From: a virus
Lineage: Duplodnaviria > Heunggongvirae > Uroviricota > Caudoviricetes
Length of the DNA stretch: 64,000 bases
Strand: one strand, 5' to 3'
Virus record (IMG/VR): IMGVR_UViG_3300027747_001395
The position numbers were made by a program, and so were the translations under genes. Of this stretch, positions 1,407-64,000 are shown piece by piece. Within the stretch, counting starts at the first letter, position 1. Every line of letters begins with the position of its first letter. A model generated the notes under the pieces. It worked only from the letters and a program-made list of their open reading frames with translations. It did no database searches and was not told the origin of the DNA.

Positions 1407-2078
1407 ATGAAGCTTATTAGAGAAATTTTTGAAGACGTTCAATACGTCACAGAAGCAAAAGAAGATGGCGGAAAGAACTTCTATATTGAAGGTGTTTTTC
1501 TACAGTCTGCAATCAAAAACCGTAACGGCCGTATGTACCCAGAACATATTATGGACAAAGAAGTTGCCCGCTATATGAAAGAAGCCGTAGATACTAAAAC
1601 TGCTATGGGTGAACTTGGACACCCAAATGGTCCACAGATTAACCTTGATCGCGTTTCTCACCGTATTGTAAGTCTTCGTAAGGAAGGTACTGATTATGTC
1701 GGTAAAGCTATGATTACTAATACTCCAATGGGTAATATTGCCAAGGGTATTATGGAATCAGGTGCTAGACTTGGAGTCTCATCACGTGGTATGGGCTCAT
1801 TGAAGCTCAACAAAGAAGGTGTAAATGAAGTTCAGGGCGATTTTAGATTAGCTACTGCTGCTGATATTGTTGCAGATCCTTCTGCTCCAAATGCTTGGGT
1901 GAATGGTATTATGGAGAATTGCGATTGGGTTTACGACGAACGACTAGGTTGGAAAGCAGTTCAGATTCTTGAAAATACCAAGAAACAAATTGAGGCTGCA
2001 GTTACTTCCAAATCATTAAATGAGAATACTAAACTGAAAATGTTTGAATCATTTTTAAGAAAAATTTCAAAAATCTAA
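1407..2078 (+). CDS. gp21: Prohead protease gp21
   Basis: IEGVFLQ..KNRNGRMY, GELGHP, GVSSRGMGSL, ADIVADPSAP motifs; synteny. Confidence 0.97.
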   Translation: MKLIREIFEDVQYVTEAKEDGGKNFYIEGVFLQSAIKNRNGRMYPEHIMDKEVARYMKEAVDTKTAMGELGHPNGPQINLDRVSHRIVSLRKEGTDYVGKAMITNTPMGNIAKGIMESGARLGVSSRGMGSLKLNKEGVNEVQGDFRLATAADIVADPSAPNAWVNGIMENCDWVYDERLGWKAVQILENTKKQIEAAVTSKSLNENTKLKMFESFLRKISKI

Positions 2079-2121
2079 TAAAGATAAATAACTATAATAA
2101 ATTATCCTAAAGGAGTTACAA

Positions 2122-3162
2122 ATGGAAGAATATGAAAACATTGATGATAGTAATCTTGAAGAAGTTGCTGCTGCCGATACACTTAAGCCTGGCGGTGGTT
2201 CAGGTGGTACAGAATCTAAGGCAGAAATGCTAGCTACTTTTACATCACTTCTTGCACAGCTTGGAAAAGAAGATCTTTCAAGCATCTTTGATGCAGTTCA
2301 AGCTCAGTATGGTCCTAACAACGCTCCAGGTGTGGTTGATTATTCTGCAAAGAATGCTGCCTCACATGATATGAAGCCATCAGCAGCAATAGATAAGGGT
2401 GCATGGAAAGAAGACATTGACGATATGTTCGGTGATGATCTAACTGAAGAATTCCGTGAAAAGGCTGAAACAATTTTTGAAGCAGCTGTAAATACTCGTA
2501 TCAATCTTGAAGTTGCTCGTCTTGAAGAAGAGCTTGAAACTATCACAACCGATCTTGAAGAGCAATTTAATGAAGCACTTGAAGAAAAGTCTGCAGAAAT
2601 ATTTGAAGAACTATCAGATAAGCTTGATCAGTATCTTGATTATGTGATTGAACAGTGGATGGAAGAAAATCAGCTTGCAGTTGAAAATAGTATTCGTTCA
2701 GATATTGCGGAAGACTTTATTAAAGGTCTACAAAATCTATTTGCTGAACATTATATTACTGTTCCAGATGAAAAGATTGATCTTGTTGCAGAAATGAAGT
2801 CTGAACTTGAAGAACTTAAGACAAAGCTTAATGAAACAATTGATTCAAAGCTTGAACTTCAAACCGTTCTTAATGAAGCAGTAATTGAAGCAACACTTGA
2901 TGATGTTTCAACAGGTTTAGTAGAAACACAGATTGACAAATTCCGCACTCTAGCTGAAGGAATTGAGTTTACTGATGCTGACACTTTCAAAAGAAAGCTT
3001 GAAATCATCAAGGAAACATATTTTTCTGGTAAAAAACTTACCTCTTCATCAACAGGTTTAATCACAGAAGAAATTGATGGTACAGACGATTCATTAACTG
3101 AATCAGTACCTGTACATATGCAGAAATACATGCAGGCAATTTCCAAAACAATTTCAAAATAA
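2122..3162 (+). CDS. gp22: Prohead scaffold/core protein gp22
   Basis: Acidic coiled-coil with KAETIFEAAV, LDQYLDYVIEQWM and FIKGLQNLFAEHYI; between gp21 and gp23. Confidence 0.93.
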   Translation: MEEYENIDDSNLEEVAAADTLKPGGGSGGTESKAEMLATFTSLLAQLGKEDLSSIFDAVQAQYGPNNAPGVVDYSAKNAASHDMKPSAAIDKGAWKEDIDDMFGDDLTEEFREKAETIFEAAVNTRINLEVARLEEELETITTDLEEQFNEALEEKSAEIFEELSDKLDQYLDYVIEQWMEENQLAVENSIRSDIAEDFIKGLQNLFAEHYITVPDEKIDLVAEMKSELEELKTKLNETIDSKLELQTVLNEAVIEATLDDVSTGLVETQIDKFRTLAEGIEFTDADTFKRKLEIIKETYFSGKKLTSSSTGLITEEIDGTDDSLTESVPVHMQKYMQAISKTISK

Positions 3163-3169
3163 AGAAAAA

Positions 3170-3177
3170 TATAAATA
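3170..3177 (+). promoter_or_regulatory. T4-type late promoter for gp23
   Basis: TATAAATA 45 nt upstream of gp23 start. Confidence 0.9.
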
Positions 3178-3221
3178 AAGAATAGCTTATAATAAAGCTT
3201 AAAAATAACGGAGAAGAAAAA

Positions 3222-4595
3222 ATGTCATATTTAAATGAAGAAATTCAAAATAAGTGGAAGCCAATCCTCGAGCACGACGATCTTCCATCAATTAAAGATG
3301 CTCACAAGCGCGCAGTTACTGCACAGATTCTTGAGAATACTGAGAATGCAGTTCGTGAAGCACGTGCAGCAATGTCAGGTGGTTTCCTTGGTGAAGCTGG
3401 TCCAACCAACTCAATTGGTAACCCAGATTCAACAAACGCCGGTGCAATTGATACCTTTGATCCAGTACTTATCTCACTAGTTCGTCGTGCAATGCCTAAC
3501 CTTATTGCATATGATGTTTGCGGCGTCCAGCCAATGACAGGTCCAACAGGACTTATCTTTGCTATGCGTGCACGTTATGCTAACCAGACTGGTTCTGAAA
3601 CTTTCTACAACGAAGTTAATACCGGTCAGTCCGCTCGCGGTGGTGCAAACGGTCAGTATACAGATACTGCTGCTGCTTCTGCAACTGCCCTTGGTGGTGC
3701 AAATACAAACGTAGGTACTTACCCAGCTGCTTCAAACAATGCTGGTAACAGTGCATACAACTTTGCTGCTGGTCTTAACACTTCATTCGCTGAAGGTCTA
3801 GGCAACACCCCATCAGTATTCCCAGAAATGGCATTCTCAATCGAGAAAGTTACAGTTTCTGCTAAGACACGTGCTCTAAAGGCTGAATACTCACTTGAAC
3901 TTGCTCAGGATCTAAAGGCAATCCACGGTCTTGATGCTGAAACAGAACTAAGCAATATTCTTTCTGCGGAAATTCTTGCTGAAATCAACCGTGAAGTTAT
4001 TCGTTCAATCGTTATTACTGCTAAGCAAGGTGCAGAATCCGGTACAACAACTGCTGGTATCTTTGATCTTGACACTGACTCAAATGGTCGTTGGTCTGTT
4101 GAGAAGTTCAAGGGTCTTATGTTCCAAGTAGAGCGTGAAGCAAATGCTATCGCTAAGGGCACCAGACGTGGTAAGGGTAACGTAATCATCTGTTCATCAG
4201 ATGTTGCTTCTGCCCTTCAGATGGCTGGCGTTCTTGACTACGCTCCTGCTCTAAACAGCAACAACCTACAGGTTGATGACACAGGCAATACTTTTGCTGG
4301 TGTTCTTAACGGCCGTCTCCGCGTGTACATTGATCCATATGCTGGTTCAAACTACATGGTTGTCGGTTACAAGGGTTCAAGTGCATTTGATGCAGGTATT
4401 TTCTACTGCCCATACGTTCCACTTCAGATGGTTCGTGCGGTTGATCCTAATACCTTCCAGCCAAAAATCGGCTTCAAGACTCGTTACGGTATGGTAGCAA
4501 ACCCATTCGCTGAAGGTCTTACTGCTGGTCAAGGTACTCTTACACAAGATTCCAACAACTATTACCGCCGTATTATTATTTCAAATCTCATGTAA
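3222..4595 (+). CDS. gp23: Major capsid protein gp23
   Basis: DPVLISLVRRAMPNLIAYDVCGVQPMTGPTGLIFAMR, RALKAEYSLELAQDLKAIHGLDAE, FQPKIGFKTRYG. Confidence 0.99.
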   Translation: MSYLNEEIQNKWKPILEHDDLPSIKDAHKRAVTAQILENTENAVREARAAMSGGFLGEAGPTNSIGNPDSTNAGAIDTFDPVLISLVRRAMPNLIAYDVCGVQPMTGPTGLIFAMRARYANQTGSETFYNEVNTGQSARGGANGQYTDTAAASATALGGANTNVGTYPAASNNAGNSAYNFAAGLNTSFAEGLGNTPSVFPEMAFSIEKVTVSAKTRALKAEYSLELAQDLKAIHGLDAETELSNILSAEILAEINREVIRSIVITAKQGAESGTTTAGIFDLDTDSNGRWSVEKFKGLMFQVEREANAIAKGTRRGKGNVIICSSDVASALQMAGVLDYAPALNSNNLQVDDTGNTFAGVLNGRLRVYIDPYAGSNYMVVGYKGSSAFDAGIFYCPYVPLQMVRAVDPNTFQPKIGFKTRYGMVANPFAEGLTAGQGTLTQDSNNYYRRIIISNLM

Positions 4596-4631
4596 GATTT
4601 GGTTTAATAACCAGAAACTTAAATGCATACT

Positions 4632-4662
4632 GGAGGGGAATCGAAAGGTTCCCCTCCTTTTT
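4632..4662 (+). terminator. Rho-independent terminator after gp23
   Basis: GGAGGGGAA-tcgaaagg-TTCCCCTCC followed by TTTTT. Confidence 0.9.
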
Positions 4663-4774
4663 AGTGATAAAGGGGAAATTTTGGATCTAATGGCTTCATT
4701 GATCTGTGGGTTCTTTTTACATCTCTCTGTGCCAATTCAGAATCCAAAATTGTATTCTCAGGTTCTAGTTTCAT
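4661..4774 (-). CDS. Small 37-aa ORF (MKLEPENTILDSELAQRDVKRTHRSMKPLDPKFPLYH)
   Basis: Manually read; AAGGA RBS upstream; fills the gp23-gp3 gap. Confidence 0.4.
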   Translation of the reverse strand: MKLEPENTILDSELAQRDVKRTHRSMKPLDPKFPLYH

Positions 4775-4786
4775 CTAATTTTTCCT

Positions 4787-4794
4787 TATAAATA
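4787..4794 (+). promoter_or_regulatory. Late promoter for gp3
   Basis: TATAAATA in intergenic region. Confidence 0.8.
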
Positions 4795-4845
4795 CCTCAT
4801 ATTGTTACTATAATCATTTTCTAAAATATGTAAATAGGAAACCGC

Positions 4846-5316
4846 ATGTACGATCAAAATAATTTATCGCAACTTAATTTTAAATTGAAGATACCAACTT
4901 TAAATAATCTTGAGTTGAGAGCTCAATCTGTAATTATTCCTGGACTGACATTAGGTCAAGCAATGATTCCTACTCCGTTTGTGAGATTAAGCAATCCTGG
5001 TAATCTTGAATATACCAATTTGCAATTGTCTTTTATGGTTGGTGAAAATCTTAAAGATTATATGGAAATCTTTAATTGGATGGTTCAACTAAGTTATCCA
5101 GATAGATTTGAACAATATCAAGAACGAAAACTTGATGGTAGTGTTTTAATTTTAAATAGTGCATTGAAACCTATTATGGATGTGAGATTTACAGATCTAT
5201 TCCCAATTTCTCTTTCTGATTTAAACTTTGATAGTACTTTATCAGAAATTCAATATGCAACAGCAACAGTGTCACTTCAATTTAATAGATTTTATTTTGA
5301 TGCAATGAGTAGTTGA
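4846..5316 (+). CDS. gp3: Tail completion/sheath stabiliser gp3
   Basis: NLSQLNFKLKI, PGLTLG, ENLKDYMEIFNWM, FTDLFPISLSDLNFD; position after gp23 as in cyanophage-like T4s. Confidence 0.88.
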   Translation: MYDQNNLSQLNFKLKIPTLNNLELRAQSVIIPGLTLGQAMIPTPFVRLSNPGNLEYTNLQLSFMVGENLKDYMEIFNWMVQLSYPDRFEQYQERKLDGSVLILNSALKPIMDVRFTDLFPISLSDLNFDSTLSEIQYATATVSLQFNRFYFDAMSS

Positions 5317-5340
5317 CATTTTATAGAATGTGTATATAAG
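5313..5340 (+). promoter_or_regulatory. Early (sigma70-like) promoter
   Basis: TTGACATTTT ... TATAAG. Confidence 0.75.
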
Positions 5341-5378
5341 AGCGTTATACCAATGTAATATAATATGGAGTATGTGTA

Positions 5379-5897
5379 TTGAAAATTGTTAACTTATGGT
5401 CGGGACCAGGATCAGGAAAGAGTACTACTGCATCTGATTTGTTTGCTCATATGAAGTGGTTAAATATAAACGTAGAATTGGTAAATGAATATGCCAAGGA
5501 AGTAACCTGGGATGAACGATTTAAGATTCTTGAAGATCAACTCTACATTATGGCTAAACAGAATCACAAGCTCTGGAGACTTAAAGGACAAGTTGATTGT
5601 GTTATTACAGACAGTCCTTTAGCTATGTCTCTTGTTTACGCTCAACCAGATTATCTTCCTGGATATTTTAAAAAGCTTGGCCTTGAACTTTTTAATCATT
5701 ATGATAATATCAATATCTTTCTAAAACGAGAGAAGCCATATCATAAAGTAGGTCGTAGTCAGACTGAAGATCAAGCTAGACAATTAGATTCCAAAATTAA
5801 AGATCTCATGCTTGAATTTGAAATTCCCTTTATCGAAGTTCCAGCAAATCAAGATGCTAAATATGTGATCTTTGACATTATTAAGGAACAGCTATGA
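5379..5897 (+). CDS. P-loop ATPase/nucleotide kinase (NadR/AAA_28-like)
   Basis: Walker A GPGSGKST; VITDSPL motif. Confidence 0.75.
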   Translation: MKIVNLWSGPGSGKSTTASDLFAHMKWLNINVELVNEYAKEVTWDERFKILEDQLYIMAKQNHKLWRLKGQVDCVITDSPLAMSLVYAQPDYLPGYFKKLGLELFNHYDNINIFLKREKPYHKVGRSQTEDQARQLDSKIKDLMLEFEIPFIEVPANQDAKYVIFDIIKEQL

Positions 5898-6430
5898 ACT
5901 ATGAACTAATTGATTGCAATGCAGAAGTGTTAAAAGTACCTGTACTAAAGTTTGATTTTTCTATTCCACCAGTGGATCCAATTCAATTAGCATATGAACT
6001 TGCGGGAGCAATGTTAAAACATAATGGTATGGGGCTTTCTGCTAATCAACTTGGTCTTCCATACCGAGTTTTTGCAATCAAAGCAAATCCTGTTATTGTG
6101 TGCTTCAATCCATTTATTGTAGATGAAAGCGCCGACAAGATCTATTTAGATGAAGGTTGTTTATCATATCCTAGTCTCATAGTAAAAGTAAAGCGCTCAA
6201 AGACTATTAAAGTCCGCTATACAGAACCAAATGGTAATGTCGTGACTAAAACCTTGGATGGACTGACTTCTAGAATCTTTCAACATGAATATGATCATCT
6301 TCAAGGTATTAACTTTACAAAGAGGGCAAGCAAGATTCACTTAGAACAAGCACGGAATCGACTAAAGTCTGGTAAACCATTTAAGTCTAAAAATGATATG
6401 GTAACTGCATATCTGAGTGGAGTTATCTAA
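5894..6430 (+). CDS. def: Peptide deformylase
   Basis: All three PDF motifs: GMGLSANQ, EGCLS, QHEYDHL. Confidence 0.95.
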   Translation: MNYELIDCNAEVLKVPVLKFDFSIPPVDPIQLAYELAGAMLKHNGMGLSANQLGLPYRVFAIKANPVIVCFNPFIVDESADKIYLDEGCLSYPSLIVKVKRSKTIKVRYTEPNGNVVTKTLDGLTSRIFQHEYDHLQGINFTKRASKIHLEQARNRLKSGKPFKSKNDMVTAYLSGVI

Positions 6431-6865
6431 GTGAAACTTGATGAAATTTTTGTCTTATGGGAAGTAGACTGTAAAATTGACAAAACCGATCTTACAAATG
6501 AAGCAATCAAGATCCCACAGTTACACCACAAATACTATCGTATATATATTAATGAGAGGCTTACTCTCCGCAAATATGAAACTCAACTTAAGCTCCTCAA
6601 GAAGGACAAGTTTGATTTCTATACCGAAGGACCAACCGAAGAGACTCATGCATTAGGATGGAGACTTCCGCCAAGAGGAAAGATACTCAAGGCGGATGCA
6701 AATGGTTACGTTGAAACTGATAAAGATATTATAGATCTTACTCTAAAGATTGGTCTGCAAATCGAAAAGACTGGTCTGTTAGAATCTATTATTAAATCAA
6801 TTGCCAATCGAAATTTCATCATTACTAATGCTATAGCCTTTGAGAAATTTCAACTGGGGATTTAA
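6431..6865 (+). CDS. uvsY: Recombination mediator UvsY
   Basis: W..DCKID......IPQLHHKY; upstream of uvsW. Confidence 0.88.
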   Translation: MKLDEIFVLWEVDCKIDKTDLTNEAIKIPQLHHKYYRIYINERLTLRKYETQLKLLKKDKFDFYTEGPTEETHALGWRLPPRGKILKADANGYVETDKDIIDLTLKIGLQIEKTGLLESIIKSIANRNFIITNAIAFEKFQLGI

Positions 6866-55550: not shown

Positions 55551-56156
55551 ATGGTAAAACAAAGATTCAAAGAGTTTATAGGTTCTGGTACACTTACAAT
55601 CTTCGATATTGATGAGACCCTCTTCCATACAAAGGCTAAAGTCGGTGTGGTTAAGGACGGCAAAGTCATACGAAAATTAGATAACCAAGAATTTAACACA
55701 TACGAGCGTAAACCTGGGGAAACCTATGACTTCGGCGAATTTCGATCCGCCGAAGTTTTTCGTAGAACTTCGGTCCCAGTAGTTCGGATGATTGAAAAGG
55801 CTAAGGCAGTTGTCAAAGCTAAAAACAATCCACACAGCCGTGCTATTATCTGTACTGCCCGTGCTGACTTTGATGACAAGCATATGTTTCTTCAGACGTT
55901 CCGTGATCATGGAATTCCAATTGATGATATGCACGTCGAGCGTGCTGGTAATCTTGGTCTTGATTCAAGTGCTGAAGCCAAGAAGGTTATATTTCGTCGT
56001 TATATAAATACTAAAAATTATACTAAACTCCGTCTATATGATGATGCAATGAGTAATCTAACTGCATTTCTGGATCTTGAAGATGAATATCCACATGTCA
56101 AGTTTGAAGCTTATTTTGTGAAGCCAGACGGCTCTACCAAGGTTATTAAACGATGA
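55551..56156 (+). CDS. HAD-superfamily phosphatase (polynucleotide 3'-phosphatase-like)
   Basis: FDIDETL, CTAR, YDDA; N-terminus QRFKEFI. Confidence 0.8.
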   Translation: MVKQRFKEFIGSGTLTIFDIDETLFHTKAKVGVVKDGKVIRKLDNQEFNTYERKPGETYDFGEFRSAEVFRRTSVPVVRMIEKAKAVVKAKNNPHSRAIICTARADFDDKHMFLQTFRDHGIPIDDMHVERAGNLGLDSSAEAKKVIFRRYINTKNYTKLRLYDDAMSNLTAFLDLEDEYPHVKFEAYFVKPDGSTKVIKR

Positions 56157-56308
56157 AAACATTTGCTGAATTTAAAGAAGAACTGTCCATTAGAGATGCT
56201 TCTGGTAAGCCTACAAAAGTAAAGAATGTGCCTATCAGAATGGCTGATGGAACAATTAAAAATCTACCACCTGGTAAGTCTGGCTCATCTGGCGGAGGTG
56301 GTGACTGA
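56153..56308 (+). CDS. 51-aa internal-protein-like ORF with capsid-targeting N-terminus
   Basis: MKTFAEFKEE; manually read; ATGA coupling. Confidence 0.7.
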   Translation: MKTFAEFKEELSIRDASGKPTKVKNVPIRMADGTIKNLPPGKSGSSGGGGD

Positions 56309-57267
56309 TGCAACGCTTTAAATCTTTCATTACTGAGGCTTCAATTCGCCAAGGCCTTCCTCATCTCTACTCCACCAAAACAGCTGCTGGTAATGACACA
56401 CCTTCACTTTCTACCGACCAGTTCCATCATCTCACAAAAGGTGGTAAAGTTTTAATCCACCATATAACTGAAAAGACCGATGGTCAGACTTTTAAGATGG
56501 GTCATGACGAACACGGCTTTTATACTCAGCACTCTGGATCTGGTGACGAAAAGATTCGTACAGCTCAAGGTCATATTGATCGAGCCAAGCGCCGGGCACA
56601 AGAAACTGGTAAGCCATATGACCCTACCGCACCTGAAGCATTTGCTAAATTCCATGATGCTCTTCATAAGAATAAAGCATTACAAGCTCATTTAGCATCA
56701 GAATATAAGCGCACAGGTAACGAAGTTGTAGTGAAGGGTGAAGCATTTAATAATGCTCTTGCTCGCCCATCTGACACAAAGAAGGGTGAAGTCAAGTTTG
56801 TTCATACTTCATACAAGAAGCCAAGAGGTTTAGGTACATTTGTCATTCATTCAAGACTACCTGAAAATCAAGGGCATGATACGGAGCACTTCAAGAAACA
56901 TCTATCAGATTCTAATATTAACTTTGAAGATGATAAGATTGCTCACAAGCCAGGTCATGTTGATGTTGCAGATGAAGTAAAAGAGTTTCATGGACTCAAT
57001 CACGAGCTTATTAATTCACGAACCACACCAAAAAATAAAGCAGCAAAGACCGCAGAGCTTGACAAGTTTAATGCAGTCAAGAAAAAAGTTAGTGATAAAG
57101 TAACCAGACACCTCGGATCACTTGGTATTAAGAATAAATTTGGTTCTGGAACCGAAGGTCTTGTTGTTCATCCATCTGCTGCAAATCCAGAAGCACCTCG
57201 CTTCAAAGCCATCAATCCTGCTTTCAAGGAAGCAAAAGCCAAAAGTTCAAGATTCGGAGCCAAGTAA
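56308..57267 (+). CDS. Ligase-like covalent nucleotidyltransferase with capsid-targeting N-terminus
   Basis: MQRFKSFITE; TEKTDG (KxDG), KGEAF, EGLVV, FKAIN. Confidence 0.7.
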   Translation: MQRFKSFITEASIRQGLPHLYSTKTAAGNDTPSLSTDQFHHLTKGGKVLIHHITEKTDGQTFKMGHDEHGFYTQHSGSGDEKIRTAQGHIDRAKRRAQETGKPYDPTAPEAFAKFHDALHKNKALQAHLASEYKRTGNEVVVKGEAFNNALARPSDTKKGEVKFVHTSYKKPRGLGTFVIHSRLPENQGHDTEHFKKHLSDSNINFEDDKIAHKPGHVDVADEVKEFHGLNHELINSRTTPKNKAAKTAELDKFNAVKKKVSDKVTRHLGSLGIKNKFGSGTEGLVVHPSAANPEAPRFKAINPAFKEAKAKSSRFGAK

Positions 57268-59093
57268 TGCAGAGATTTAAAGCGTTTATTCTAGAGGGTG
57301 GCAACATCCGTGTCGGACCAAAAGGTCAGGAAACATCTGCTGCGGCATTTCCGGTAACTGCAGGTACTCGCCATCAGGTCCGCCATGACATTCACCATGC
57401 TTTAACAGCAATTGGTGACACATTTCATAAGGAACACGGCGAGCATCTATTCGGTCAGGATCATCAGCGCCTTCATGATGCTACTGCATATACCGGCTCT
57501 ACTCACGATCTCATGGGTCACCACGTATCACATGCTGAATTTGCAAAGCATAAACCAATGGTTGGTGACGTTGACACTCAGGTGACACCAGAACATAAAG
57601 AAAAACTAGCTACTCATCTTACACCAGGCAGAAAGTTTGGTAAGTATACAGTTGTCGGAACCAAGAAGCATGGTAATGAAATCTCTGCAGTTATGCGTCA
57701 TGAGAATGGTGAACATCATCAGTTTGATTTCCAAGGTGTAAATCACCCAGGTTCGGAAGCTTCGAGATTCTTACATGGATCAAACTGGGAAGACACAAAG
57801 GCAGGAATTAAAGGTGCTCACCACAAAATCCTTCTAAATGCGGTTGCCGGTGATACTCATAAGTTCTCAATTACACACGGTCTTCGCTCACGTACTGATG
57901 AATCTGATCCTGGTGTACAACACCCACATGAAGTTACCAAGAAGCTATTTGGTGCTAATGCCGATCATAATAATATCCATTCATTCCATGGTGTAACTCA
58001 ACTGATCAAGAAGCACATCCCTAAAGAACAGCACCAGGCAATCTACGATAAGTTTAAGGGTGCCGTATCTAAAATGAAGGGTATGGATCATGGTCCTGCT
58101 CTTGCTCATATGCGTAAGCATCTCGGTGTGGTTGATACGGTTAATGAAGCTAGAGAAGCACAAGATCCTGGTGAGAATCATGAAACGACCATAGGTCGCA
58201 AACTTGCAGCACATCGACTTATTAATAGCTTAACTGATAAGAATGAGAAAGATGTAATAAAGCATAGATATATTCATGGTCGTACATTAGAACAGACTGC
58301 TAATGTTTTAGGTCTAAGAAATAGAGAACATGCTAGACAAATTGAAGCCAAAGCTTTACGTAGTATGAGAAATAGATCAGATCTATACGATAAAGATGGT
58401 GCACGTGATTATGTAAAAGAAGCTATGAAAGATGATCCCTGCTGGACAGGTTATAAAATGATCGGCAAAAAGAAAAAGAACGGCAAGGAAGTTCCTAACT
58501 GCGTTCCTGTTCACGAGGAAGAAACACATCACGTCCACGTCTCATATCTAGGCGCTTCACCATTCCCACACATGGGACACCATACTGATATTGGCGGTTC
58601 AATGGAAGCAGCACCACACGGCAAGAAGTTTATCGGTCTATCTGGTAAGTCTGATGCATTCTCAGATAAGGAACGTGAAGATATTGCCAACAAGCAGTCA
58701 GGTGGTAAGGTTGATTTCCAAACAGTAAAGTCACCAGGTGTTACAATTGCCAAGGCTCATGCGAGTATGCCTGCTACTGGTAGAAAGGTTCTTCATCTTC
58801 ACTTTGGGCATGACCGTCAGAAGTTTGCGGAAGGTCTTAAGCACTCAGTAGAGAATGGCAAGATTCCAGAGCTTCAAGGTCACAAGTTTGACGAAGTTCA
58901 TGTTCATCTACCAAAAGATGAAAATCGTTCACATGGTCTATCAGGTACAAAGATGCGAACTGCTGCGGAATCCGGCGACCTAAATACATTTAAGAAACAT
59001 GTCGGTCCTAACTTCTCCGATAAGGAAGTTAAAGGTCTTATGGATCGAACACGTGTAGGTTTAATGGCAGGCAAGATCAAGGTAAAAAGATGA
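57267..59093 (+). CDS. Multidomain cargo protein: Pol-beta-like NTase, sigma70 region 4, Cys module, HIGH-type cytidylyltransferase-like domain
   Basis: MQRFKAFILE; GS...GDVD; LTD.NE.DVI..RY...TLEQ.A..LG..RE..RQIEAKALR; DPCW..NCVP; PHMGH, GHDR, SGTKMR. Confidence 0.75.
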   Translation: MQRFKAFILEGGNIRVGPKGQETSAAAFPVTAGTRHQVRHDIHHALTAIGDTFHKEHGEHLFGQDHQRLHDATAYTGSTHDLMGHHVSHAEFAKHKPMVGDVDTQVTPEHKEKLATHLTPGRKFGKYTVVGTKKHGNEISAVMRHENGEHHQFDFQGVNHPGSEASRFLHGSNWEDTKAGIKGAHHKILLNAVAGDTHKFSITHGLRSRTDESDPGVQHPHEVTKKLFGANADHNNIHSFHGVTQLIKKHIPKEQHQAIYDKFKGAVSKMKGMDHGPALAHMRKHLGVVDTVNEAREAQDPGENHETTIGRKLAAHRLINSLTDKNEKDVIKHRYIHGRTLEQTANVLGLRNREHARQIEAKALRSMRNRSDLYDKDGARDYVKEAMKDDPCWTGYKMIGKKKKNGKEVPNCVPVHEEETHHVHVSYLGASPFPHMGHHTDIGGSMEAAPHGKKFIGLSGKSDAFSDKEREDIANKQSGGKVDFQTVKSPGVTIAKAHASMPATGRKVLHLHFGHDRQKFAEGLKHSVENGKIPELQGHKFDEVHVHLPKDENRSHGLSGTKMRTAAESGDLNTFKKHVGPNFSDKEVKGLMDRTRVGLMAGKIKVKR

Positions 59094-59347
59094 AAACATT
59101 CTGTCAGTGGATTAAGGAAAGTTTACCAACAAATAGTACTGGTGGTGGAATCAGAGGTCTAGGTAATGTCACTGGAGTACCTGGTGGCACTATTTCTAGT
59201 TATGCCGCATTTAATGCATCTGATACTAGTGTTAGCGACGCTGTGAATGCTATGCATGCTACCACTAATAATACTGGTGATGTTAAAGATAGTAATACTG
59301 CTGACACAAAAAATAATATCTTGAAAGTAGGTAAAGGTAAGAAATAA
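59090..59347 (+). CDS. Small internal-protein-like ORF with capsid-targeting N-terminus
   Basis: MKTFCQWIKE then SLPTNSTGGGIRGLG. Confidence 0.65.
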   Translation: MKTFCQWIKESLPTNSTGGGIRGLGNVTGVPGGTISSYAAFNASDTSVSDAVNAMHATTNNTGDVKDSNTADTKNNILKVGKGKK

Positions 59348-60255
59348 TGGCACAATGGAGAATTGACCAACAGAAGAAAGTTGAACAGAACAGTAAGACA
59401 CTATATGAATTGGGGATGATTGCTACAGTAAATGGTGATCCAGTTACTAATGTGAATCCGTTCCCAGTAACACTTGGTTCCAATAATATTACAATCACTG
59501 GAAATGTTAATGTTGGAACAACTGTACAGGTGTCTAGTACTCCTGAAAATCCAATACACAGCCATATTACTGAAGTTGGTAATAGTGGTATTCTAACAGT
59601 TTCGTATATGCCTATTAGTGGTAATGTAGTAATTACATCAGGCAATCTAAATGCAAATGTTACTGGTATTGTTAACGTAGGCAACTTCCCTGCATCACAG
59701 AATGTTGTTGTAACTTCTGGTAATATAAATATTACTAGTACTGTTACTGTTATTACAACACAAGAAGCGGGTGATTTATATTCCTTTAATAATCATGCAA
59801 TAAATACGAATCGTGGTTGGACTATGGACGATACTATGCGTCCTGTTGTTAGTTTTAGAAATAATAGTGCAAGTGTTGCGGATTTAATAAAAATTATTGA
59901 ATATGAAATTGGAAACAACAACGCTAATCAAAGCACTATTGTGTATGAGTGGTATGAAGGTGATCTAACAATAACTGGAGCAGCTATACCTGCTTGGACT
60001 ACGTTTGGTGTTCACAGTCAATATCGTGTATATCAAGACAAATATTCTTCTAATCAAGGAAACACGTTTACTCCAAATGGTTCAATAATGAGACACAGTG
60101 GTATCATTATTGGTAAGAATACATCTGGTGATGAAGGCCCAAAATCAATGCATGGCGGTGGAACTCCAAATATGCTTACTTTGTGTATGAGACGTGTTGA
60201 TAACTCAACCAAACTAGACGTATGGTTTGCATTTACTATTAAGGAACTAGCATAA
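59347..60255 (+). CDS. Putative virion structural protein (beta-rich)
   Basis: Repeated GNVNV/SGNV motifs; TPENPIHSHITEVG. Confidence 0.6.
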   Translation: MAQWRIDQQKKVEQNSKTLYELGMIATVNGDPVTNVNPFPVTLGSNNITITGNVNVGTTVQVSSTPENPIHSHITEVGNSGILTVSYMPISGNVVITSGNLNANVTGIVNVGNFPASQNVVVTSGNINITSTVTVITTQEAGDLYSFNNHAINTNRGWTMDDTMRPVVSFRNNSASVADLIKIIEYEIGNNNANQSTIVYEWYEGDLTITGAAIPAWTTFGVHSQYRVYQDKYSSNQGNTFTPNGSIMRHSGIIIGKNTSGDEGPKSMHGGGTPNMLTLCMRRVDNSTKLDVWFAFTIKELA

Positions 60256-60256
60256 A

Positions 60257-60550
60257 ATGAAAACATTAAAAGCTTTTATATTAGAATGTATCTTATTAGA
60301 ACGAGGTGAGGATTCAAAAGGATATAAAAGATCCACAGAAGATGGGGCTGGGTTAACTAGAAAAGGCGCTAAAGCTGCAGGTGTTAAAACAGCTGTTACA
60401 ACACCACCAAGTAAACTAGACCCAAATGGTAAAGCAGCAAAAAGACGTAAGTCATTCTGCGCTCGTATGAGTGGTGTGCCTGGTCCAATGAAAGATGAAA
60501 AAGGTCGTCCAACTCGTAAGGCTGCATCACTAAAGCGTTGGAACTGTTAA
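60257..60550 (+). CDS. Basic internal-protein-like ORF (DUF6321-like) with capsid-targeting N-terminus
   Basis: MKTLKAFILE; GAGLT.KG, RRKSFCARM, RWNC. Confidence 0.7.
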   Translation: MKTLKAFILECILLERGEDSKGYKRSTEDGAGLTRKGAKAAGVKTAVTTPPSKLDPNGKAAKRRKSFCARMSGVPGPMKDEKGRPTRKAASLKRWNC

Positions 60551-60562
60551 AAATCTTATTTG

Positions 60563-60570
60563 TATAAATA
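60563..60570 (+). promoter_or_regulatory. Late promoter
   Basis: Intergenic TATAAATA. Confidence 0.85.
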
Positions 60571-60575
60571 TATTG

Positions 60576-60770
60576 TTAAGGCTAAGGCAAACACGTTTTT
60601 AATAACAGATAAGCCCAAGGGAAACTCTGATGGAAAGAATAATACAAGTACCAACCCGCAACACACTCATTTCTTCTCCCAAACTAGACTATGTTGTCGG
60701 AGAAATAGGTTGTCTTAGCCTTAATCAAACAAAGTTACAAGTCTCTTGATCGTTTGATCTTGGGGCTGTT
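60576..60770 (+). ncRNA. Putative structured RNA or 5' leader with pseudoknot
   Basis: 15-bp P1 (60576-60590/60710-60724), 7-bp hairpin (60724-60730/60752-60758), crossing helix (60612-60619/60759-60767). Confidence 0.6.
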
Positions 60771-60788
60771 TTAGTATTAGAGGAAGTT

Positions 60789-63700
60789 ATGGACAAAATA
60801 AACGAAATTACTGAAGGTGATTACAAATTAAAAAAGACCGGACTAGAAAAAACTATTGCTCACCCAGAAGGTAAAGCAACTTATGAAGTTCATCATAATG
60901 GACAAATTATTGGTAAAATAAAGCCATATAGTTCATATCTTGATAAGAAAAAACCTGGTTCTAGAATAGTATCAAGTCGAAAAAATATTACTAGTTATTC
61001 GTTCGATTTCAATGGTAATCATGGCCCAAGGTCTCATGAAATGGGTACTTTTGTTTATATGGGTCACTCTAATCCTAAAGTGGCACTTCAACGAATGTCT
61101 AAAGAACATCAGACATTTAAAGCAAAACAAAAGAATGAAGAAGTAAACCTAGATGAAAATATTTTAAACATTCAGCAACGTCAAAAGCGTGCTATTGAAA
61201 TGCGTAGAAATGAACCAAGAATTGAAATTGCCAGAGAACGAGCTAAGAAAAAAGTGGCGCCTGAAGCAAATATCAAGAAGCGTTCATATGCAATGGCAAG
61301 ACAACTTGTTCGTAGCAGACTTACTAATGTTTCACAAGCTGAATATGCTAAGATGGGCCCATCTGAAAAGATGGCAATTGACCGAGTTATCGAAAAGAAA
61401 GGACCTGCTATCAAGAAATTAGCAATGCGTCTAATTCCAAAAGTCAAGAAGGCTGAATATGCCCGACTTCAATCTTATATGCATGGACAGCAAATGGCTA
61501 ACCATGGAGCACCGGAAGGAAATCACGTGTCAGAATCTTTAAATAACCTGTTCCTAGAATACTTTGGTGATTCCGCACCAGGTAATAGTGGATCCACAGG
61601 TGAGCGTTCAGATAGTCCAATTAATTCTAGCGGTCGCAAGATTGCTAAATCAAATACTAAAGGTGATTCTCAGGGTAACGCCAAAGGTGGCACAAAGACT
61701 AAAGGATCTCCCATTGTCCAATATGGCAAGTTCGGTGAAGATCTAGAAGTTGATAGTCCTGTTTTTAAAGCTCTTATTAAAAAGGCTGATGCTACTAATC
61801 TTGATCTAGAGATTCTTGGTGAAGTCTATAATCGTGGGCTTGAAGCTTGGAACGAGGATTGCTCAGTATCACAACAGCAGTACGCATTTGCTCGTGTAAA
61901 CTCATATATCAATCAGGGTAGAACATACTTTAATGAAGATGCTGATTTGCACGAACTTTCAAAGTCAACACTTAAATCGTACCTAGCTAAAACTAAAGAA
62001 GGTGGAAAACAATATCCAACACCACTATCATTTAGAAAATCAATGGAGTCTCAGGGTATTGCTAAAGGTAAACTTGGACTAAAATATAAAAGACGTCCAG
62101 TACCTGATGTGAAAATTAAGGCTACAAATGAAGAAGTAGAGCTTCAAGAAGATGAAGCTCCAGCTAAGGTAGGTGACAAAGTTTATCTCAAAACAAAAGT
62201 ACACGCTAATTCCCCACATACTGGTAAAGTAAAAAAAGTTACACCTACTCATGTTCATTTAGATACTGGTCATGGAATTTATAAAGCACCTCATTCTGCT
62301 ATTACTAAAGATTATAAGCAATCTCATCTTCATGTTAACTACGGTAGTAAGAATGAAGAAGTAGAAGTAACTGAAGGTAAATTTACTGCTCATGTAAGCA
62401 AGAATGGTCGTAGTCATGGAACAGTTAAGCTTTCTGCTATTGATCGAGAAAATGCTGAATATCAGATGAAGAAGCATCCTTATTACAAGCACTTTACAGT
62501 TGATAAAGTTGTAAAAGAAGAAAATCTTGAAGAAAAAAGAGGTCTGTGGGATAACATTCATGCTAAGCAAAAAAGAATCAAAGCTGGTTCGGGTGAACGT
62601 ATGCGTAAACCAGGTTCGGAAGGAGCACCATCTAATTCTGATTTAAAAGCTGCTCAGGAATCAGTAGACTTTGAAGAATCAAAGAATACGCCATATGTAA
62701 AAGCATATTTTGAAAAAGGTCAGACAAAGCAAAATTCATGGAAAGCTATGAACAAGCATGGTCATGTCAAGCACTTTGGTCTTCCTTTTAAGAAAGCAGC
62801 TGAATTACATGCTGGTCTTTCTGAGGGAGTACAATCAGATTTTTTAGATGAAATGGCCGGAGCGAATATGGATCGCCGTGCTCTGGTCTCACACATTACA
62901 AATAAAGGATGGCAGAAGAAGGCAAGTGGTGGAAGCGGCGACCATGATGTATTCACACATCCAAAGTCTACACACCGTCTAGCAGTTCCTAGGCATAACA
63001 AGCTTAAGGCACCTTTAATTCTTGATGTGCTCAAGAAGTCCAAAATTATGGACAAGACCAATGAGGAAATAGAATCAGTAGATGAACATATAGTCAAGGT
63101 CAAGAGCGGTTACCGTCTAGTTTCTAAATCATCTGGTAAGAATCTAGGTACTTATCCTACTAAGGAGGGTGCTGAGAAACGTGAAAAGCAAGTTCAATAC
63201 TTCAAGCACCAGAACGAAGAAGTAGAACTTGATGAGGTTCTGTTAAGTTCATTTAAAAAGACTGAAAAGTTTGGCGGTAAAGATCTAGGTAAACATATCT
63301 CTACTATTGAAGGTACTAAGCATATTGGCACACTAGAAAATGGACATCATGTTTATCATAGTTATGATCCAAAAGATAAAATGCATGACTATCATGTAGT
63401 AGACCCAAAGACCAAGCGAATCAACATTCACCTTACAACCAAGCAGCAGGCGGCTCCTGGTGCTGAAGAAGTTAGTGTTCTAACTGCTAATGACAAATCA
63501 CTTGGTGCACATCATCTCTACCAGCACCTTGTGACAAAGCACAACAAGATTATCTCATCTAATGACCAGTCACCAGGTGCTAGAAGTGTATGGGCAAAAG
63601 TTGGAAAGCATAAAGGCATTCATATTCATGGATATGATCCTATCAGCAAGACAACATTTCACATGAAGCCATCTGATGATGAAGAATACATAGATAGAGA

Positions 63701-64000
63701 TAATAAGGAAGTAAATACGGTCAAAGCAGATCGTAAACTTACTGCTCCAAAATCCAAAGATCGTGCCGCACATGATGCAGAATTAGAAGATCTTGATAAA
63801 AAGAAATATACATACATTGTAATGCACAAAAAGAGTGGTCTCAAGGAAGATCTTGAATCATATCTTTCAGAATCAACACTACCTAAAAGTTATACCAAAG
63901 GTCTCACTCCTGCTGAAATAAAAGCAAAAAAAGCACATATTGAAAGAAATAATAAACTTTCCGATAGGGATCCAGATGCTTATAAAGATATGCCTGGAGA
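60789..64000 (+). CDS. Large modular internal head polyprotein (>1070 aa, runs off the window) containing HicA-like and GNAT-like modules
   Basis: Manually translated with no stop from ATG 60789 to the window end; GAGG RBS; repeated acidic NEEVxLxE-like linkers; absent from ORF track because it is 3'-open. Confidence 0.88.
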   Translation, partial: MDKINEITEGDYKLKKTGLEKTIAHPEGKATYEVHHNGQIIGKIKPYSSYLDKKKPGSRIVSSRKNITSYSFDFNGNHGPRSHEMGTFVYMGHSNPKVALQRMSKEHQTFKAKQKNEEVNLDENILNIQQRQKRAIEMRRNEPRIEIARERAKKKVAPEANIKKRSYAMARQLVRSRLTNVSQAEYAKMGPSEKMAIDRVIEKKGPAIKKLAMRLIPKVKKAEYARLQSYMHGQQMANHGAPEGNHVSESLNNLFLEYFGDSAPGNSGSTGERSDSPINSSGRKIAKSNTKGDSQGNAKGGTKTKGSPIVQYGKFGEDLEVDSPVFKALIKKADATNLDLEILGEVYNRGLEAWNEDCSVSQQQYAFARVNSYINQGRTYFNEDADLHELSKSTLKSYLAKTKEGGKQYPTPLSFRKSMESQGIAKGKLGLKYKRRPVPDVKIKATNEEVELQEDEAPAKVGDKVYLKTKVHANSPHTGKVKKVTPTHVHLDTGHGIYKAPHSAITKDYKQSHLHVNYGSKNEEVEVTEGKFTAHVSKNGRSHGTVKLSAIDRENAEYQMKKHPYYKHFTVDKVVKEENLEEKRGLWDNIHAKQKRIKAGSGERMRKPGSEGAPSNSDLKAAQESVDFEESKNTPYVKAYFEKGQTKQNSWKAMNKHGHVKHFGLPFKKAAELHAGLSEGVQSDFLDEMAGANMDRRALVSHITNKGWQKKASGGSGDHDVFTHPKSTHRLAVPRHNKLKAPLILDVLKKSKIMDKTNEEIESVDEHIVKVKSGYRLVSKSSGKNLGTYPTKEGAEKREKQVQYFKHQNEEVELDEVLLSSFKKTEKFGGKDLGKHISTIEGTKHIGTLENGHHVYHSYDPKDKMHDYHVVDPKTKRINIHLTTKQQAAPGAEEVSVLTANDKSLGAHHLYQHLVTKHNKIISSNDQSPGARSVWAKVGKHKGIHIHGYDPISKTTFHMKPSDDEEYIDRDNKEVNTVKADRKLTAPKSKDRAAHDAELEDLDKKKYTYIVMHKKSGLKEDLESYLSESTLPKSYTKGLTPAEIKAKKAHIERNNKLSDRDPDAYKDMPG

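Follow-up and report, generated by a model that had tools for sequence, protein, structure and literature searches.

HicA is known as a bacterial toxin that is restrained by HicB. The HicA toxins of HicAB systems, as represented by PF07927 and by the structures 4C26/6G26 and 1WHZ (TTHA1913), are domains of ~60 amino acids (aa) in which a helix, three strands and a helix form a dsRBD-like fold, and the structures from S. pneumoniae (5YRZ), Y. pestis (HicA3; 4P78) and E. coli (6HPB) provide further comparisons. A domain of this type, here designated the HicA module, is encoded in the window, a 64,000 nucleotide (nt) stretch of DNA from a virus of the Caudoviricetes (IMG/VR record IMGVR_UViG_3300027747_001395), where it is one bead of a modular polyprotein encoded by an open reading frame (ORF) that continues to the end of the window.

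60789-63998, plus strand: modular polyprotein ORF, ATG at 60789, 3'-open at the window end, at least 1070 aa
62853-63065, plus strand: HicA module, in-frame translation inside the ORF 60789-63998

The HicA module has the same order of helix, three strands and helix as the HicA toxins and shares with them the GW, G-x-H, HP and VPRH signature, the glycine and histidine required for toxicity and a strongly basic surface. Unlike the toxins of HicAB systems, it has no HicB in view, it is embedded in a polyprotein or, in relatives, follows a leader of the capsid-targeting sequence (CTS) type, it has a family-specific N-terminal extension, M-x-G-A-N-M-D-T-R, located after a protease-type joint, and it belongs to a subfamily encoded by lytic T4-like phages beside late genes.

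Proteins are directed into the T4 head by a CTS, MKTYQEFIAE, and foreign proteins fused to this sequence are packaged (PMC8442874), as exemplified by staphylococcal nuclease (PMC3012670). For packaging, the N-terminal 10 residues of IPIII are enough, and gp21 cleaves after L/I-X-E (PMC9026906). T-even internal proteins are otherwise diverse and fast-evolving, with the targeting tag as their sole common feature (PMC3012670). The locus described here resembles that of the T4 proteins IPI, IPII, IPIII and Alt in having T4-type protease, scaffold and capsid genes, MKTYQEFIAE-like leaders, here on adjacent genes and on the free-standing HicA relatives, and L/I-x-E-type sites, and also in having small basic predicted products and a hypervariable, cassette-like organization. 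Alt provides the precedent that an enzyme can be delivered by the capsid route. The T4 internal proteins are, however, single proteins with one cut behind the leader, whereas the precursor in the window has ~ten modules on repeated acidic linkers and an atypical leader, and its cargo is a ribonuclease (RNase) toxin domain, a type absent among the described T4-type internal proteins.

Two further groups of phage proteins are comparable. Polyvalent proteins (Iyer et al. 2017, PMC5512222) also combine many unrelated effector domains, for which co-delivery with the DNA and processing have been proposed, whereas Pfam identified no MuF, DarB-type helicase/methylase, ArdC, or Zincin or other peptidase anchor in the readable 1070 aa of the polyprotein, and the latter is predicted to be processed at its conserved linkers by the head maturation protease. 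HicA has 0 occurrences in that paper. In phiKZ-like and SPN3US-like phages, many head proteins, including ejection and inner-body proteins, are cut after Glu by a gp21 homologue and ejected (PMC9026906), but these phages belong to a different group, the motif is S/A-X-E, the proteins are encoded by separate genes and no HicA cargo is reported (PMC9026906). A literature search for HicA in combination with prohead protease, internal proteins, virion or polyvalent proteins returned nothing relevant.

Identification of the HicA module

Within the module, the region that aligns with PF07927 and the predicted catalytic loop are readily apparent, and two sites of the form hydrophobic-x-Glu bound the cassette to which the module belongs.

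62853-63086, plus strand: HicA cassette bounded by the two hydrophobic-x-Glu sites, residues 689-766, 78 aa, isoelectric point (pI) 9.6
62877-63044, plus strand: HicA_toxin core (PF07927), helix, three strands and helix, residues 697-752
62937-62945, plus strand: G-D-H loop, Gly717 and His719 of the polyprotein, corresponding to G29 and H31 of the module

The module at 62853-63065 is a genuine HicA-family domain by profile, by fold and by its catalytic Gly and His. A first-pass annotation, made by a model from the sequence, had recognized the HicA pattern, had listed the translation with its flanks, SDFLDE and TNEE, and had proposed a search with the HicA_toxin profile and an AlphaFold model. 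Re-translation reproduced the module exactly, with ...SDFLDE before it and ...TNEEIESVDE after it, and both of the proposed analyses agree with the assignment. The isolated module matches Pfam HicA_toxin (PF07927) over profile positions 2-57 of 58 with 30.7 bits (E 3.4e-7), above the curated gathering cut-off of 27 bits, and it also matches PHROG 353, designated 'toxin', with E 2.4e-9. For the 71-aa module, a homologue search by word index returned zero candidates, and a single-sequence phmmer search of the PDB with the module found no match, a profile being needed. A profile of 59 modules (alignment A1) matches the B. pseudomallei HicA structures 4c26 (E 8e-10) and 6g26 (E 3.4e-9) and also TTHA1913 of T. 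thermophilus (1whz; E 4e-7).

The alignment-based AlphaFold2 (AF2) model from 59 sequences has a mean confidence (pLDDT) of 84.2 and consists of a helix, a three-stranded sheet and a helix in a dsRBD-like arrangement; it superseded a single-sequence AF2 model of the module that was poor (pLDDT 59.5). In a Foldseek comparison of the alignment-based model with the PDB, the top seven matches are all HicA, with query template modelling (TM) scores of 0.52-0.75 and root-mean-square deviations (rmsd) of 1.6-3.2, the best being 6g26_E (TM 0.75/0.82, rmsd 1.6 Å).

Butt et al. reported that the G22C and H24A substitutions abolish the toxicity of B. pseudomallei HicA, and 4C26 is the structure of the H24A protein (PMC3969222). 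In the HMMER alignment, Gly29 and His31 of the module align with Gly22 and the H24A position of 4c26, and likewise with 6g26, and the Gly and His of the G-D-H loop are invariant across the 59 aligned modules. The module is predicted to be a catalytically competent HicA-type endoribonuclease domain.

Distribution of the HicA subfamily

A phmmer search with the module against 1.84 billion protein cluster representatives gave 111 matches, of which 108 were kept as carriers, from clusters that share no more than 50% identity with each other. P0012 and P0111 were dropped from the counts as repeat artefacts on inspection, and P0115, matched through five short stretches only, was left out of all counts. 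PF07927 matches all 108 carriers (E ≤ 0.001). Most (~85%) are proteins of 200-1100 aa in which the position of the module varies, and single carriers join HicA with an ADP-ribosyltransferase exoenzyme, a Zeta-toxin/AAA_33 kinase, an SfsA nuclease or an HD domain. The ADP-ribosyltransferase domain is the enzyme type of the injected Alt protein of T4.

The HicA core is strongly basic in this family (median pI 10.6), as are all modules of the polyprotein, and T4 internal proteins are also highly basic and are embedded in the DNA (PMC8442874, PMC3012670). The module could then be packaged but non-catalytic, with the HicA fold used, as in these T4 proteins, as a small basic nucleic-acid binder that condenses or escorts the DNA. 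We consider this improbable as the catalytic His is retained in 105 and the Gly in 107 of the 108 carrier clusters, together with the other HicA signature residues, and residues needed for toxicity are ones that a mere binder could lose.

The window DNA is present in freshwater metagenomes of at least two studies. The polyprotein DNA had no megablast match among 50,697 phage records, and as tblastn of the module also found none in these 50,697 deposited phage genomes, HicA cassettes of this type are known from metagenomes only. When a consensus-like member of the family was used in place of the module, tblastn against the same 50,697 gave only weak matches, to HicA genes from ordinary toxin-antitoxin systems in temperate phages.

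Absence of an adjacent antitoxin

The first-pass annotation had also stated that no hicB is visible in the window, and the searches bear this out. HicB families were not detected in the at least 1070 aa of the polyprotein (E ≤ 1) or in the genes neighbouring it, and there were none among the matches listed for 57 small window ORFs (E ≤ 0.001; nine weaker families, with E > 0.0011, lie beyond these matches). No HicB family is present in the 108 carrier clusters, nor is there a HicB within ±10 kb of the corresponding loci in three relatives. An adjacent hicB in a two-gene operon, the organization of a HicAB system, is not found for this HicA, and the module is therefore classified as a HicA domain and not as a HicAB system.

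A HicA homologue without its own HicB could serve as a decoy or anti-toxin-antitoxin factor, binding the HicB of the host or competing with the host HicA. Of the options, titration of host HicB appears the least likely, since the toxin of the host would itself be set free, an outcome that favours abortive infection over the phage. The subfamily is also distant from cellular HicA, with tblastn similarity to the toxin-antitoxin HicA genes of temperate phages being weak. Such a role is, in our view, very improbable.

Linkers and predicted cut sites in the polyprotein

The polyprotein has ~10 basic modules (pI 8.9-9.8) strung on acidic linkers of the NEEVELxE type, and each linker ends in hydrophobic-x-Glu. 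Both boundaries of the HicA cassette have the motif, as LDE and VDE (the motif alone, at the level of sequence), and the window also encodes a protease of the type that would be expected to cut there.

62844-62852, plus strand: upstream junction L686-D687-E688, predicted cut site of gp21 type, immediately ahead of the first Met of the module
63078-63086, plus strand: downstream junction V764-D765-E766, predicted cut site ahead of the next module, HIVKV...
1407-2078, plus strand: gp21-type prohead serine protease (Peptidase_S77, E 5e-38), the predicted linker-cutting enzyme

The upstream joint is a feature of the family. There are 89 carriers with at least eight residues upstream of the module, and [LIVMF]-x-Glu is located directly before the module in 87 and [LI]-x-Glu in 78 of these, with a motif background of 2.8% per position. 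The sequence logo at this position reads E-E-V-E-Q-L-D-E/M, with the slash marking the joint. Within the HicA cores, hydrophobic-x-Glu motifs are 7.7-fold rarer than in the remainder of the carriers, and the next such motif after the module ends a median of 7 residues past the last helix. A joint that is conserved in this way, combined with depletion of the motif inside the domain, is predicted for a protease substrate and not for a spacer.

In most of the modules listed, a Met immediately follows the joint, and the database entries P0038, P0063 and P0088 begin exactly at the Met of the module. This would also be consistent with translation initiating internally at the conserved Met, so that HicA is also, or only, made separately and with no proteolysis. 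There is, however, no clear Shine-Dalgarno sequence ahead of this ATG in the window, database entries that begin at the Met may be cut gene calls, and an internal start leaves unexplained why Glu is conserved at position -1 and Leu/Ile at position -3, making this explanation highly unlikely.

Homologous polyproteins, with partly different sets of modules, are encoded in two IMG/VR relatives, designated L001 and L002, and a third relative, L003, has one of the flanking modules as a gene of its own.

L001, 1784-6448: polyprotein homologue, 1554 aa
L002, 8618-11302: polyprotein homologue, 894 aa
L003, 9980-10417: HIVKV-type module as a separate gene behind the CTS-like leader MRKTFNQFVAE

The junction between the flanking modules SKNTP... 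and HIVKV... contains the HicA cassette in the window, is empty in L001 and holds an unrelated cassette of ~150 aa in L002. At E ≤ 1, Pfam identified only DUF5824 and HicA_toxin in the 1070 aa of the window's polyprotein. The L001 homologue (1784-6448) extends beyond the point at which the window ends, and, by eye, L001 and L002 have in common a conserved tail, RLIGTDSLVK.... A putative HD-type motif was noted by eye in the C-terminal part of the L001 protein, for which Pfam at E ≤ 0.01 gave DUF5824 alone.

The HicA DNA is unchanged in a second freshwater metagenome (run X2). In the linker ahead of it, at 62805-62844, LHAGLSEGVQSDFLDE is replaced by KHAYGVTNEEIELDE, with the L-D-E/M joint kept (single low-depth contigs). 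A HicA-less variant was suspected from X2 ends at 62804/62845, but these in-frame ends overlap into one linker, KHAYGVTNEEIELDE, and because this variant linker still precedes the HicA cassette, no HicA-less strain is claimed for the X2 sample.

Leaders of capsid-targeting type and proposed delivery of HicA

Some short relatives consist of a leader and HicA alone, with the leaders MLTFKEFIAE in P0069, MLSFKEFIVE in P0101 and MLSFKEFISE in P0106, the first of which is identical to the T4 tag at 7 of 10 positions. In the T4-like contigs L004 and L007, the gene order is polB, UvsX, DnaB, ..., YkuD, HicA, a DUF5824/DUF6321 protein and ferritin, and in contigs of 171 and 118 kb a 928-aa carrier is encoded at the corresponding place, directly upstream of the ferritin gene. 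HicA is therefore present at one locus either as a separate tagged gene or as a fused bead. Judged by their leaders of capsid-targeting type, the free-standing HicA relatives favour the idea that HicA is head cargo.

A T4 late-promoter-type box, TATAAATA, is located upstream of the polyprotein ORF.

60563-60570, plus strand: TATAAATA, T4 late-promoter-type box, upstream of the polyprotein with ~220 nt to its start

This sequence is enriched in the window, with 16 copies versus 6.45 expected, and further copies are positioned directly upstream of the gene for gp23 and of a gp19-like gene. For a T4-type late leader, the gap from the box to the start codon of the polyprotein (60571-60788, ~220 nt) is a long one.

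The joints of the polyprotein fit the cut site of the head protease that the phage itself encodes, so that HicA is probably loaded into capsids, freed and injected. The polyprotein precursor would be made late and co-assembled into the prohead core, where the gp21-type protease of the phage would cut after the hydrophobic-x-Glu joints, LDE/MAGAN... and ...SVDE/H. Cutting would free a basic HicA of ~78 aa (residues 689-766), which would remain with the DNA inside the head, enter the next host with the genome and there cleave host RNA ahead of any phage gene expression, resulting either in host shut-off or in the destruction of RNA needed for defence. The N-terminal fusion may also hold HicA inactive until it is cut. 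We propose that HicA would need no antitoxin because the cell that makes it is by then doomed and the capsids keep the protein sequestered.

The first-pass annotation had described the module as a toxin within a virion polyprotein. What stands of this, as read from the sequences, is a modular and apparently late protein with L/I-x-E joints, a gp21 gene in the window and relatives with CTS-type leaders; that the HicA module is packaged, cut out, latent while fused, injected and active, and which RNA it would cleave, are predictions. The full chain, from a late HicA bead that is packaged and cut by gp21 to an injected, RNA-cleaving enzyme, is in our estimate moderately probable. It is possible, but we suggest this with more reserve, that a widespread lineage of aquatic T4-like phages uses the capsid and the maturation protease to load shuffled effector cassettes, including, as a recurrent one, an antitoxin-less HicA that would be latent until activated by the cut that forms its conserved N-terminus and then injected to cut host RNA within seconds.

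A different function for the polyprotein would be cytoplasmic. T4 RegB clears early mRNA, and by analogy a polyprotein that is made late and remains unpackaged could provide a HicA that clears host or early phage mRNA in the producing cell, with the acidic linkers functioning as spacers or recombination handles. The linker DNA is indeed repetitive, cassettes are swapped exactly at the linkers, the N-terminus of the polyprotein fits a CTS poorly, and the variant linker in the second metagenome retains the same LDE/M joint. This explanation does not, however, account for near-perfect CTS leaders attached directly to HicA in the free-standing relatives, for a joint that is kept as amino acids across the 87 of 89 diverse clusters and depleted inside the domain, or for the same linkers being present in the gene that adjoins gp21, and we regard it as unlikely, if still worth consideration.

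Several observations weigh against capsid delivery of a gp21-cut, active HicA. The N-terminus of the polyprotein, MDKINEITE, ends in I-x-E but otherwise poorly resembles a CTS and is without the aromatic pattern, and no literature precedent was found for a precursor of >1000 aa in a T4-type core. The L/I-x-E motif is only three residues long and the acidic linkers might be simple spacers or serve as handles for recombination, and the copy in the window is without the V-x-E that is found ~7 residues past the last helix in most relatives. With respect to HicA itself, the module scores 23.6 bits with PF07927, less than the cut-off of 27, when searched within the whole 1070-aa protein, and in the window copy two residues are inserted into the loop immediately ahead of the catalytic Gly and His. 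The HicB search covers 64 kb of the genome, and a HicB could lie elsewhere. The early transcripts of the phage would also be at risk from an unspecific RNase that is injected, and no protection mechanism is visible.

A HicA domain that is predicted to be catalytic recurs, antitoxin-free, in more than 100 phage protein clusters that bear an address tag and cut sites of the T4-head type. If HicA is delivered from the capsid as proposed, a ribonuclease joins the few enzymes that are injected by phages along with the DNA, and a toxin could be controlled through fusion and sequestration in the capsid, without the need for an antitoxin. T4-type internal proteins could then be protease-cut polyproteins with exchangeable cassettes, and a toxin of the toxin-antitoxin type would be a virion-delivered weapon for which proteolysis and sequestration replace the antitoxin. 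The prediction is directly testable in the established T4 expression-packaging-processing system and by virion mass spectrometry.

Head genes and neighbouring genes

The phage in the window is an uncultured, T4-like freshwater phage, with a gp43-type DNA polymerase, UvsX, a gp41-type helicase, RegA, UvsY and the clamp and clamp-loader families, and its DNA polymerase is ~50% identical to the polymerases of cyanomyophages. The gp21 gene is accompanied by genes for the scaffold and capsid proteins, and a cluster of genes with CTS-like leaders is positioned directly upstream of the polyprotein.

2122-3162: gp22 scaffold (T4_CASP, E 6.5e-66)
3222-4595: gp23 capsid protein (E 8.8e-152)
56153-60550, plus strand: five-gene cluster with CTS-like leaders, directly upstream of the polyprotein

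A candidate propeptide site, GGFLGE/AGP, is present in gp23. The 5'-open gene directly upstream of the gp21 gene (1-1002) has no Pfam match and encodes the acidic linkers ETEDLDE and NATNEDLDE, which are like those of the polyprotein encoded 60 kb away.

The leaders of the five-gene cluster are MKTFAEFKEE, MQRFKSFITE, MQRFKAFILE, MKTFCQWIKE and MKTLKAFILE. The protein with the leader MQRFKAFILE (57267-59093, 608 aa) has a Sigma70 region-4 domain (PF04545, E 6e-10), which is unusual inside a probable head-cargo protein, and also a stretch that matches a phage 'cytidyltransferase' PHROG.

In the relatives, a ferritin/Dps-like gene (PF00210) is located directly downstream of the HicA or polyprotein locus (L004:4150-4590, L007:11453-11893 and L008:13563-14000), and in two of these three contigs a secreted YkuD-domain protein is encoded directly upstream of this locus. 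L003, the contig with the separate HIVKV-type gene, also encodes a 680-aa membrane protein (L003:7474-9516), by eye a putative sensor-linked adenylate/guanylate cyclase, and a 273-aa secreted protein (L003:10798-11619), by eye a putative DRGH-type non-specific nuclease.

Elsewhere in the window, small ORFs between 4846 and 49012 match peptide deformylase, MazG, HD_4 domain and class I chitinase/lysozyme-like families, and there are also two dCMP-deaminase-type proteins and matches to nucleoside 2-deoxyribosyltransferase-like families.

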